A DNA stretch of 58,762 bases from Bacillota bacterium (GTDB lineage Bacteria > Bacillota > DTU025 > JANLFS01): assembly GCA_024655925.1 (NCBI GenBank), contig JANLFS010000005.1:1-58762 (forward strand), written 5' to 3'. The number at the start of each line of letters is the position of its first letter. The stretch's first letter is position 1. The notes under the pieces are model-generated. The model did not search any database. It was not told where the DNA came from and saw only the letters and a list, made by a program, of their open reading frames with translations. Below are positions 50,232 to 55,651 of this stretch, piece by piece. Both the position numbers and the translations under genes were made by a program.

Positions 50232-50705
50232 ATGTATGAGTCCACGCCAGACCCTGGGCCGGGAGTCGAGCCTCGCCCCATCGCTTGTGTGATGGAAGCG
50301 GCGCTGAGGCCGCTGCCCGAGTCCGGACACGACATATCAGCTTTGGTCGCTGCAGGGCTCGGTGGGCTAGAACCCTTACAGCCCGGTTCGCCGGGGCGAG
50401 GCCGGGGGATCATTCTCTTGTACATCAACCCACCTGCAGTCCGGGGTGGCTCGGACGTTCAGGTTGTGGAGAGGCCGGGTAAGGCTTCTGCCCCCTGTCT
50501 GGATATCCTGCGTCCGAGGCTCACCAGAGCTGAGAAAACCGTCATGGCCCTGCTCGCGGAGGGCAAGACGAACCGTGCGATCGCGCGGGAACTCTTCATC
50601 TCGGTCAATACGGTTAAGACCCATGTGCGCTCGATCTTTCAGAAGTTGGGTGTGGGGACCAGAAGCTCCGCGGTGCGAAGGGCTCTCGAAGCAGGACTCA
50701 TCTGA
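50232..50705 (+). CDS. LuxR/FixJ-type HTH regulator without a receiver domain
   Basis: The C-terminal LTRAEKTVMALLAEGKTNRAIARELFISVNTVKTHVRSIFQKLGV is a GerE/LuxR HTH. The N-terminal ~95 aa are Pro/Gly-rich with no recognisable domain. ATG at 50232 behind GGAAGGAGGG. Confidence 0.75.
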   Translation: MYESTPDPGPGVEPRPIACVMEAALRPLPESGHDISALVAAGLGGLEPLQPGSPGRGRGIILLYINPPAVRGGSDVQVVERPGKASAPCLDILRPRLTRAEKTVMALLAEGKTNRAIARELFISVNTVKTHVRSIFQKLGVGTRSSAVRRALEAGLI

Positions 50706-50849
50706 TCCTCACACGGGCGCATTCCGCCTCACAATTCACCCGTTCAGGCAATGGTAGTGGATTCGACGTGAATGGTATGATTTGCCTGCAAGCACCACCG
50801 CGCTGGAGGGCCGTCACCCGTGGCGCGCAACGGGAGGAGGTGAGCGGGA

Positions 50850-50951
50850 GTGTTCAGGGTTCTCGCAGGTCGCAAGGCCCGGGTCAACGTCTCCATCAAC
50901 AGCTTCTGCATCTCGTTTCCACTCTGGGGGCACTTCATAACGATCGGATGA
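50850..50951 (+). CDS. candidate RiPP precursor peptide (33 aa); not in the ORF track
   Basis: GTG start 9 nt after GGGAGGAGG. Translation: MFRVLAGRKARVNVSINSFCISFPLWGHFITIG. Third codon positions are mostly G/C, like the real genes here. It lies immediately upstream of the RRE-containing radical SAM gene, with a hairpin between them. Confidence 0.4.
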   Translation: MFRVLAGRKARVNVSINSFCISFPLWGHFITIG

Positions 50952-50984
50952 CTTCCCAGAGGGACCTCCACTCCAACCAGGCTC

Positions 50985-51016
50985 GGCGGGGGCCGTTTCG
51001 CGCACTGGTCCCCGCC
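50985..51016 (+). promoter_or_regulatory. 10-bp GC stem-loop between the candidate precursor and the radical SAM gene
   Basis: GGCGGGGGCC-12 nt-GGTCCCCGCC (one G-U pair), followed by a pyrimidine-rich CTCTTCTT. A possible attenuator or processing site. Confidence 0.4.
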
Positions 51017-51047: not shown

Positions 51048-52370
51048 ATGGACGAACCCCAGACAGTATGGACTCTCCATCCCGGCGCCAGGGTCATCAA
51101 ATCGGAGTCAGCGTGGCTTGTGATGAACCCAGGGCTCGGAACATGGGCCAAGCTGTCGCCAGTGGCAGGGGCTGTGTGCCAGAATGATGCTGGAGAGGAC
51201 CTCCCAACCCTCGTGAATCGGGTCAGTACTGCTTTCGGGGCCTCAGGGGACGAGATACAGGGCTTCGTGCGGGACATGGCTGCGCGGGGATTGATATCTT
51301 GCGCCCCGACCGTCGCTCGGGCGGAGGAGGTCGCCCCGAGGCCCAAAGTGTTCCTGTCTGTGTGTGAACGCTGCAATCTTGCCTGCACCACCTGCTACCG
51401 AGGAGACCTATCAGGCCGCGATGCTCCAACCGAGGTTGCCCTGGACACCATGAGCAGGATTGTAGAGTTGCGTCCACGGGAGTTGGTTCTGACAGGGGGC
51501 GAGCCCTCTCTCAGGGACGACCTTCCTGACCTGCTCGAGATGGCACGGTCCGTCGCCCCTATGGTGACCCTGGCCACCAACGGCACTTCTATATCTCCTG
51601 CCCTCGCGCGGGCCATCGCCAGCTTCGACATCCGGGTGCAGGTGAGTATCGACTCCTCAGACCCCGGGGAGAATGACCGCGTCAGAGGCCCGGGTTCATT
51701 CGCGCGTGCCCTGGGTGGACTCGCCACATTGGCACGGGCGGGTGTCGCTTCCATAGAGCTTGTCGCCACCATGGTGGACCCAGCCACCTTCGACCCGGAC
51801 CGCCTGACCTCTCTCGCCCGGGAGTTCGGGGCGGGTTTTCATTCAAGCCTTTTTATGGAGGTGGGCAGAGGGCGGTGCACACCCAGGCACTCCAGGAGAG
51901 AACCGTCAGCTTTTGCCCGTGCCTTGCTGTCCTACCTCCTGCGCGCGTACCGTGCTGGTCTCATTCCAGCTGGGGCCAGTCTTGACGACGTTCTGGGGAT
52001 TGTGCCGAGGACCGCCTGTGGGGCGGGGACCCTCATTCTTGCCGTGTCTGCCTGGGGAACGGTGTATCCGTGTCACCTGCTCATGTCGGACGAGTTCGGT
52101 GTATCCTTCGACGAGGTCCTCTCCTGTGCTGGGGCCGGGTCGCCCTGGAGTATCCCCGGTGTCGACTCTTTGAAAGGATGCTCGGAGTGCAAGGTCAGGT
52201 ACCTGTGTGCGGGCGGCTGCAGGGCCTCCGCCCTTGCCGCAGGAGACTTGGCCGGCCGGGACCCGATGTGCGAGTCCTACCGTGCCTTCCTGGAGGCCGT
52301 CGTATGGCCCTGGGACGACTCTCGGGGGACAGAGGAAAACCTCAAACACGCCTGGGCGGCCTTACAGTGA
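51048..52370 (+). CDS. radical SAM/SPASM peptide maturase with an N-terminal PqqD-like RiPP recognition element
   Basis: aa 1-95 follow the PqqD/RRE pattern (LHPGARVI..SAWLVMNP..GTWAKLSPVAGAVC...LVNRVSTAFG...IQGFVRDMAARGLI). CNLACTTCY is CxxxCxxC. The SPASM region reads CGAG..GTVYPCH...CSECKVRYLCAGGC...CESY. Confidence 0.8.
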   Translation: MDEPQTVWTLHPGARVIKSESAWLVMNPGLGTWAKLSPVAGAVCQNDAGEDLPTLVNRVSTAFGASGDEIQGFVRDMAARGLISCAPTVARAEEVAPRPKVFLSVCERCNLACTTCYRGDLSGRDAPTEVALDTMSRIVELRPRELVLTGGEPSLRDDLPDLLEMARSVAPMVTLATNGTSISPALARAIASFDIRVQVSIDSSDPGENDRVRGPGSFARALGGLATLARAGVASIELVATMVDPATFDPDRLTSLAREFGAGFHSSLFMEVGRGRCTPRHSRREPSAFARALLSYLLRAYRAGLIPAGASLDDVLGIVPRTACGAGTLILAVSAWGTVYPCHLLMSDEFGVSFDEVLSCAGAGSPWSIPGVDSLKGCSECKVRYLCAGGCRASALAAGDLAGRDPMCESYRAFLEAVVWPWDDSRGTEENLKHAWAALQ

Positions 52371-53068
52371 GTTCCGCGTGGCTCTACGGGGTTCTTGGGC
52401 TGTCAGTGGCGTCCCGGGCCCTTTGCGGCAGGCGTGGGGGGAGCACTCAGGTGGACGGCGGGGATGTGCTTCTCGGGTTAATCATGTGTCTTACGTGGGC
52501 CGCGACAGGCTCAGACCCTGGTGCCGTCTGGAAAGTGACCGGAACCCATATTGGCCGGGCGCACATTGTGAGGTGGGGGCTGGTCGCGTTGGTCATGTTG
52601 GTGACGAACGAGTGCATTCACATCTGGCTAACACGGCGGCACGGTCGCTGGATGGTGAGGGCCGGCGTCAACCCCGGCGGCGCTTACCTCGCGCTCAGGC
52701 ACCTCTCGACGGGGCGTGCCGCCCTTCTTGGGCTGCTGTTCACCTCCTCCGGTGCATTCCTCGAGGAGTTGCTGTTTCGAGGGATCATCTCGGAGGCGGT
52801 CGAGACTGTGGCTGGGCACGGTGCCGCCCTGATCGGGCAGGCTTTACTGTTCGGTGCGGTCCACTGGCTTCCCATGGCTGTCCGGCGTGCCCCCGGGCCG
52901 GTAGTGGTGTACGCGACCTTGATGCCCACCGCAGCCGGAGTGGTCCTCGGGTTCATCGCGCACCTGGAGGATAGCCTGATGGGGCCCTGGGTTATCCACT
53001 GGAGTCTGAACTACGGGGCGCTTCTGATCGCGGTATCGCGAAGGGCAAGTGAGCGCGCCTCGGCGTGA
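52367..53068 (+). CDS. CPBP-family (CAAX/Abi) intramembrane glutamic protease
   Basis: GTGA overlap with the radical SAM stop. Multiple TM helices. Motif 1 FLEELLFRG (EExxxR), motif 2 LLFGAVHW (FxxxH), and a later HWSLN. Confidence 0.75.
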   Translation: MSSAWLYGVLGLSVASRALCGRRGGSTQVDGGDVLLGLIMCLTWAATGSDPGAVWKVTGTHIGRAHIVRWGLVALVMLVTNECIHIWLTRRHGRWMVRAGVNPGGAYLALRHLSTGRAALLGLLFTSSGAFLEELLFRGIISEAVETVAGHGAALIGQALLFGAVHWLPMAVRRAPGPVVVYATLMPTAAGVVLGFIAHLEDSLMGPWVIHWSLNYGALLIAVSRRASERASA

Positions 53069-53126
53069 CGGTCCCATCGACTGCTTGAGGGCAGGTTGGA
53101 GCGGTCCAGGGGAGGGGGAACAGAAG

Positions 53127-53387
53127 TTGCACATTGGCCAGGTGTTTGCCATGCTGGGTAGGGCTTTCCTCGACCGGGCTCGGCACGCGTCCGACCGTGC
53201 CCGCCGTGAGCGGTTGGCCTGGAACGCATGCCGTTCCTTCTCGATGGCGTGGGCGTTGGGTGATTCGTCGCCGTCTGTGCCCAGAGGCCTTGTGGAGGCG
53301 GCAGGCATTCTGAGCGGTTCGCACCAAGGTTCTGCGGCATGGCAGAAGAAGGATTATGGGAACAAGCTGTCGAATGAACAATTATAG
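53127..53387 (+). CDS. hypothetical 86-aa protein
   Basis: TTG start 8 nt after GGGGAGGGGG. Helical and Arg-rich with no motif. Codon bias weakens toward the 3' end. Confidence 0.3.
   Translation: MHIGQVFAMLGRAFLDRARHASDRARRERLAWNACRSFSMAWALGDSSPSVPRGLVEAAGILSGSHQGSAAWQKKDYGNKLSNEQL

Positions 53388-53441: not shown

Positions 53442-55651
<2,210 letters not shown>

Follow-up and report, generated by a model that had tools for sequence, protein, structure and literature searches.

What does the short open reading frame upstream of a radical SAM enzyme gene encode in an uncultured Bacillota bacterium of the DTU025 lineage (assembly GCA_024655925.1, contig JANLFS010000005.1)? In the window, which is the whole 58,762-nucleotide stretch analysed (positions 1 to 58,762 of the forward strand), a 33-codon frame lies between a LuxR/GerE-type regulator gene and a gene for a radical SAM enzyme. 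A sequence-only reading had proposed that this frame, with its strong ribosome-binding site, extended -10 box, G/C-rich third codon positions and downstream GC hairpin, is the precursor gene of a modified peptide. We find that the frame is a real small gene, conserved in uncultured Bacillota, that very probably encodes the substrate peptide of the neighbouring enzyme and membrane protease; the peptide belongs to no described family, and its chemistry and role are matters of inference from sequence.

Features of the peptide locus in the window, with positions counted from the first nucleotide of the stretch
Feature	Position	Strand	Remarks
LuxR/GerE-type HTH regulator	50292-50705	+	Open from TTG 50214; probable start ATG 50292
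Conserved upstream block, candidate regulator-binding site	50730-50753	+	AATTCACCCGTTCAGGCAAT-like
Extended -10 promoter element	50773-50781	+	TGGTATGAT
Conserved block just downstream of the -10 box	50782-50800		TG(G/C)-GCAAGCG-CG
Ribosome-binding site	50832-50840	+	GGGAGGAGG, 9 nt before the start codon
In-frame TGA	50841-50843	+	Rules out a longer reading of the peptide frame
Precursor peptide gene	50850-50951	+	33 codons plus stop; GTG at 50850, TGA at 50949-50951
GC-rich stem-loop	50985-51016	+	50985-50995 paired with 51006-51016; 11 pairs including one G-U; 10-nt loop; tail reads CCCCAACACTCTTCTT
RRE-radical SAM-SPASM peptide maturase	51048-52370	+	Open from GTG 51033; probable start ATG 51048, behind GAGGTG
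CPBP (CAAX/Rce1-like) intramembrane glutamic protease	52367-53068	+	GTG start overlaps the maturase stop (GTGA)
ORF without counterpart in the other loci	53049-53387		
Histidine kinase	53442-54344	+	300 aa; SpoOB_a plus HATPase_c

Is the frame as described, and is it more than chance? The observation is confirmed in its details, except that the stem, given as 10 bp, has 11 pairs. GC content at the three codon positions is 0.45, 0.45 and 0.79, against 0.68-0.77 at the third position of neighbouring genes. Overlapping frames of 139 aa on the + strand and of 215 aa and 88 aa on the - strand were rejected, because only the 33-codon frame is conserved. A degenerate DNA pattern for the peptide occurs once in the window and 0 times in 100 shuffles.

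Is the frame conserved with the enzyme? A whole-genome search with the enzyme found orthologues at 27-53% identity in genomes of the same order and in one genome of the same phylum. In all 18 of these loci that include upstream DNA, a frame of exactly 33 codons sits just before the enzyme gene, with start and stop at the same aligned codons. A profile of these peptides, searched in 401 genomes sampled from the phylum, matched 24 genomes in six families, plus one weak false hit inside a 775-aa frame; the 12 new loci, from three further families (here f5, f56 and f132, as against f1, f3 and f4 of the window's order), again show the regulator, a 33-codon frame and the enzyme in that order. A GGAGG-type site sits a few nt (about 5-12) before the start in each of these 30 loci. 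Over 25 distinct sequences the invariant residues are G7, C20, F23, W26, T31 and G33; M1 is nearly invariant, and position 2 is always Phe or Tyr. Within the segment FCISFPLWGHF, the conservation of which had been singled out for checking, only C20, F23 and W26 are invariant, and G27 and H28 are replaced by I and F in family f3. One family member (L052:1501-1599, - strand) has ATC where all others have ATG or GTG, which is either a rare start codon or a sequencing or assembly difference. There are also two length variants (homologues P0026 and P0028), one of 34 residues with an extra Gly after the Trp-Gly, the other of 36 residues with a divergent N-terminus.

The substitutions are those of a translated gene, as close pairs differ almost only at synonymous sites. 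Loci L006 and L011 differ by 5 synonymous and 0 non-synonymous changes, and L017 and L019 by 9 and 2; over all pairs mean pS is 0.72, which is saturated, and mean pN is 0.30.

How widely is the gene distributed? The degenerate pattern matched every WG-type locus already collected, and in a genome collection holding one genome for each of 185,579 species it hit 28 contigs. Twenty-four of these are uncultured Bacillota, Firmicutes or Clostridia MAGs, for example DTU025, UBA5389, UBA1393, UBA6811 and AS04akNAM_80, in which the enzyme follows the peptide wherever the fetched DNA reaches that far (22 of 24) and the regulator precedes it wherever the DNA reaches (23 of 24). The other four (Singulisphaera, Chitinophagaceae, Rhodobacteraceae and Nigerium) have none of that context and are chance matches. 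A profile search of 1.84 billion representative proteins found only about ten clusters, all matched at their C-terminal end. The gene is missed by gene calls or called with a wrong, longer start: public calls exist for a few members, named only 'hypothetical protein', and many run to 54-72 aa (for example homologues P0010 and P0023-P0025). The extra N-terminal part is the translated promoter and 5' leader, and in the DTU025 locus (L008:1257-1421) the 54-aa call begins at an ATG inside the aligned -10 block. No Pfam or NCBIfam model matches any of the 25 peptides, even at E 10, and literature searches for the peptide motifs and for radical SAM plus CPBP/CAAX RiPP systems found nothing relevant.

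What surrounds the peptide gene? The regulator matches Pfam GerE at 1e-18, a homologue lies directly upstream of the peptide gene in every locus, and its probable start is inferred from the conserved MEAxL N-terminus of the orthologues. The orthologue in genome G021 (L057:5025-5630) carries a receiver domain plus GerE, whereas the window's regulator has only about 70 N-terminal residues, with a conserved GRG-[IV]-ILLY-[IL]-N segment, and gave no receiver-domain hit at E<=0.01. The protease (Pfam Rce1-like, 6e-12) has the EExxxR, FxxxH and HxxxN motifs, and a protease follows the maturase in every locus that reaches that far. In the window's order (f1, f3 and f4) the four genes lie directly upstream of obg-nadD-yqeK, which indicates vertical inheritance; in the window obg-nadD-RRM-yqeK follow the histidine kinase, a counterpart of which is found in only one other genome (G003, locus L022), so that the kinase is not part of the conserved cassette. 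In f5, f56 and f132 the cassette lies elsewhere, and in 5 of 7 loci checked there an ABC ATPase and an ABC-2 permease immediately follow the protease. No exporter is present in the window's cassette. The window's genome does encode, on another contig (C186, 3183-6944), an ABC-2 permease 34% identical to the one that follows the cassette in G021, next to a likely ABC ATPase, but no link to the cassette could be shown. Might another small ORF, for example one beyond the protease, be the conserved partner? This outcome, named beforehand as one that would overturn the reading, was not found, as the ORF just beyond the protease has no counterpart in the other loci and nothing else conserved lies there in the window.

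The maturase matches Pfam Radical_SAM at 3e-17. CxxxCxxC (C114, C118 and C121) and seven later cysteines in the SPASM pattern are invariant in 20 orthologues. The AlphaFold2 model (pLDDT 85, pTM 0.84) predicts four strands (within residues 12-41) and three helices (within 43-84) before the barrel, the shape of a PqqD-like recognition element, and PqqD (RRE) Pfam hits are on record for two homologues (P0005 and P0007). Foldseek ranks peptide maturases first, over the full length: CteB (8e-15), TigE, SuiB and SkfB, with anSME, ChlB and PqqE following. By sequence, however, the nearest solved structures match only at E about 1e-8, and the enzyme stays below the cut-off of every NCBIfam model, the best weak matches alternating between StsB (NF045574), MftC (TIGR03962) and AhbD/NirJ.

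What of the DNA signals? The motif TGnTAnnnT lies 60-83 nt before the start codon in 12 of 13 loci of f1, f4 and f5, but is not kept in f3; a strict sigma-70 scan did not call it because there is no good -35. The block about 20 nt further upstream aligns across f1, f4 and f5 loci, but it is an imperfect palindrome only in some loci, clear only in one genus, so that it remains a candidate regulator-binding site of inferred function. The block just downstream of the -10 box is also conserved in f1, f4 and f5 loci and could be a 5'-leader element or an operator. For the hairpin, the fold of 101 nt was no better than shuffles (z 0.03), a measure that is uninformative in this GC-rich DNA, and a rank test of local hairpins was used in its place. 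The window's hairpin is in the top 0.3% of 44-nt windows of its locus. All 19 loci examined have a 10-13 bp GC-rich stem in the spacer between peptide and enzyme genes, with at least three unrelated stem sequences, and the best 44-nt window of the spacer lies at a median of 0.3% of all windows of its locus and at or below 1.3% in 17 of 19 loci. No U-tract follows, a terminator scan found no terminator-like site, and there is no Rfam match. The hairpin is therefore a selected structure, but not a classical terminator.

How might these parts work together? With high confidence, we take the frame to be the translated gene for the substrate peptide of the adjacent enzyme, and the regulator, peptide, enzyme and protease to form a four-gene unit for a ribosomally made, enzyme-modified peptide. 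The sequence-only reading of the frame as a precursor gene is thus supported. In the mechanism we envisage, transcription would start from the extended -10 promoter just downstream of the regulator gene, probably under that regulator's control. The hairpin would act as a partial stop or a 3'-end protector, as commonly proposed for precursor genes of modified peptides, so that peptide mRNA exceeds enzyme mRNA; the precursor-to-enzyme ratio suggested in the sequence-only reading remains inference. The basic N-terminal half of the peptide (residues 1 to about 14) would dock as a strand on the RRE, and the enzyme would abstract a hydrogen atom in the aromatic C-terminal half and make one crosslink. 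Our leading guess, a tentative one that we rate slightly less likely than not, is a thioether from the only cysteine, C20, to the alpha-carbon of F23, W26 or T31, as SkfB and StsB do; the one thioether and the aromatic crosslink put forward in the sequence-only reading both remain possible, as do other reactions. The CPBP protease would then trim the leader at the membrane, and the product would leave the cell, in sister lineages through the ABC-2 exporter encoded in the cassette. What the analysis establishes is that the gene is real and under purifying selection on the protein, that it accompanies an enzyme with an RRE-like N-terminal domain, a radical SAM core and a two-cluster SPASM domain, and that a CPBP membrane protease, catalytically complete by its motifs, follows; expression, regulation, docking, the modification and its chemistry, leader removal, export and the hairpin's role are all inferred. 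It should be said that 33 residues is short for a leader-plus-core design, and that conservation of the whole peptide across families is unusual for bacteriocins. The role is more likely that of a conserved signal or a membrane-active self/non-self peptide than of a variable antibiotic, as the whole peptide is conserved and the cassette is inherited vertically beside obg.

Which known systems come closest? With the exporter of the sister lineages, the gene order is that of the Bacillus subtilis sporulation killing factor genes skfA-B-C-E-F: precursor, radical SAM enzyme with an RRE, CAAX/CPBP-type protease, then an ABC ATPase plus permease. In both, the core reaches the precursor's last residue, and SKF has a single Cys4-Met12 thioether, from Cys to the alpha-carbon (PMC8172795); one invariant Cys is available as donor in the present peptide. 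The peptides show no sequence similarity, however, and SkfB has a twitch domain with a [2Fe-2S] cluster (PMC8172795), whereas the present enzyme has a full SPASM domain. SkfB (TIGR04403) is not among the 25 best of the window enzyme's 67 matches at E<=0.1, and one orthologue scores 62 bits against a cut-off of 300. SkfA has 55 residues. There are no skfG/H genes here, and a LuxR-type regulator is part of the unit.

StsB of Streptomyces sparsogenes forms sactionine bonds yet is nearest to MftC by full-length similarity (PMC10288494). It is the best or second-best curated model for the enzyme and its orthologues, and some alignments cover the N-terminal recognition domain through the SPASM region, but the scores are 94.8 bits for the window enzyme and 68-145 bits for orthologues, against a cut-off of 625. 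A Tyr follows CxxxCxxC in both. By the motif landmarks of PMC10288494, the six catalytic-site positions here would be Y122, T154, A181, S205, H348 and L349, against Y113, T147, I174, S199, K338 and L339 in StsB; four of six agree (Y, T, S and L), though this mapping is inferred from offsets and is not an alignment. The StsA core is CxCxCx4GxGxG with several rings, whereas the present peptide has one Cys and an aromatic core. In the CteA/CteB (SCIFF, thermocellin) ranthipeptide system, CteB is the best fold match for the enzyme, and SCIFF is likewise a strongly conserved, vertically inherited peptide of unclear role. SCIFF has six Cys against one here, the TIGR03974 model scores 74-83 bits in orthologues against a cut-off of 425, and SCIFF loci are not known to contain a CPBP protease.

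Could the chemistry be of another kind? The alternative that survives best, though we think it unlikely, is a carbon-carbon or carbon-nitrogen crosslink on the aromatic residues, as in streptide, tryglysin or three-residue cyclophanes, with Cys20 serving another purpose. F23 and W26 are invariant, SuiB, which makes a Lys-Trp crosslink, is among the best fold matches, and the WgkB model (NF050035) gives weak matches. But Cys20 is also invariant, and the usual partner residues are not conserved: no invariant Lys, Arg or Asn lies near W26, there is no conserved Lys in the C-terminal half, and G27-H28 become I-F in f3. WgkB scores 71 bits against a cut-off of 650, and the inferred catalytic-site residues match those of the sactionine-forming StsB at four of six positions.

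Is the peptide a distant relative of the mycofactocin precursor MftA, so that the system would make an intracellular redox cofactor? We consider this very unlikely, but the comparison produced a lead. MftC is the best or near-best NCBIfam match of the enzyme and its orthologues, and a genuine mycofactocin locus in the same phylum (L087:1393-3065, genome G201), with an MftA ending LAIDGICGVY, a short-chain dehydrogenase, MftB and MftC, was the only such hit in 301 genomes sampled from the phylum. Many peptides of the present family read LAIDGFC-x-x-F. Against that single MftA, hhalign gave P 3e-4; against 116 distinct MftA tails collected from metagenomes it gave a probability of 89% and P 2e-6 over columns 13-20 (n-v-s-I-d-g-x-C aligned with E-v-S-I-D-G-M-C). 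In a control with permuted columns of the peptide alignment, 2 of 400 permutations reached the observed score, so that the honest significance is about 0.005. The shared motif, [VIL]-[SA]-I-[DN]-G-x-C, is followed three residues later by an aromatic residue, F23 lying where the modified Tyr does in MftA. The resemblance, if real, is short, and may reflect common descent or a shared way of docking into MftC/StsB-type enzymes. Against the cofactor reading, the MftA model TIGR03969 does not match the peptide at E up to 10. MftC scores 101 bits for the window enzyme, and 99-142 bits in the six orthologues that match it at E<=1e-15, against a cut-off of 265, with no such match in two f3 orthologues. 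The leader is basic rather than acidic, the RRE is fused rather than a separate MftB, no MftD, MftE or MftF gene is adjacent, and the residue after CxxxCxxC is Tyr, not Leu as in the phylum's own MftC. A membrane protease, and an exporter in sister lineages, point to export. MftC chemistry itself is excluded, as the peptide ends in T-I-G, with no C-terminal Val-Tyr, and the aligned residue is an internal Phe.

A regulatory leader peptide that with the hairpin only tunes enzyme expression, or an unrelated small membrane protein, is the least likely reading, for although the frame is short, precedes a hairpin and sits at the 5' end of the operon, amino-acid conservation runs over its full length to the last residue with six invariant positions and pS far above pN, the hairpin has no U-tract and no alternative pairing with the frame, and an RRE-bearing maturase needs a peptide substrate for which no other conserved small ORF exists.

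A more speculative possibility, which we think unlikely though not excluded, is that the peptide and MftA descend from one ancestral precursor, the shared [VIL]-[SA]-I-D-G-x-C-x-x-aromatic segment being the part that positions the substrate in MftC/StsB-type enzymes. If so, this cassette would be a secreted offshoot of the mycofactocin lineage, the invariant F23 would mark the reaction site of a new crosslink, for example a Cys20-Phe23 thioether or a Phe23-Trp26 link, and the product would act as a conserved signal read by the LuxR-type regulator.

What does the finding mean? The gene defines a peptide family without a Pfam or NCBIfam model, paired with a radical SAM enzyme that no curated family claims, in a system that is small: one peptide, one enzyme and one protease. 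The local resemblance to the mycofactocin precursor, if real, would link a cofactor pathway and a secreted-peptide pathway, and would help to predict reaction sites in the poorly resolved MftC/StsB group of enzymes. Unlike most bacteriocin-type peptides, the peptide is conserved over its whole length and inherited vertically, in lineages known only from metagenomes, chiefly of anaerobic digesters, and that pattern points to a physiological role such as signalling or self-recognition.
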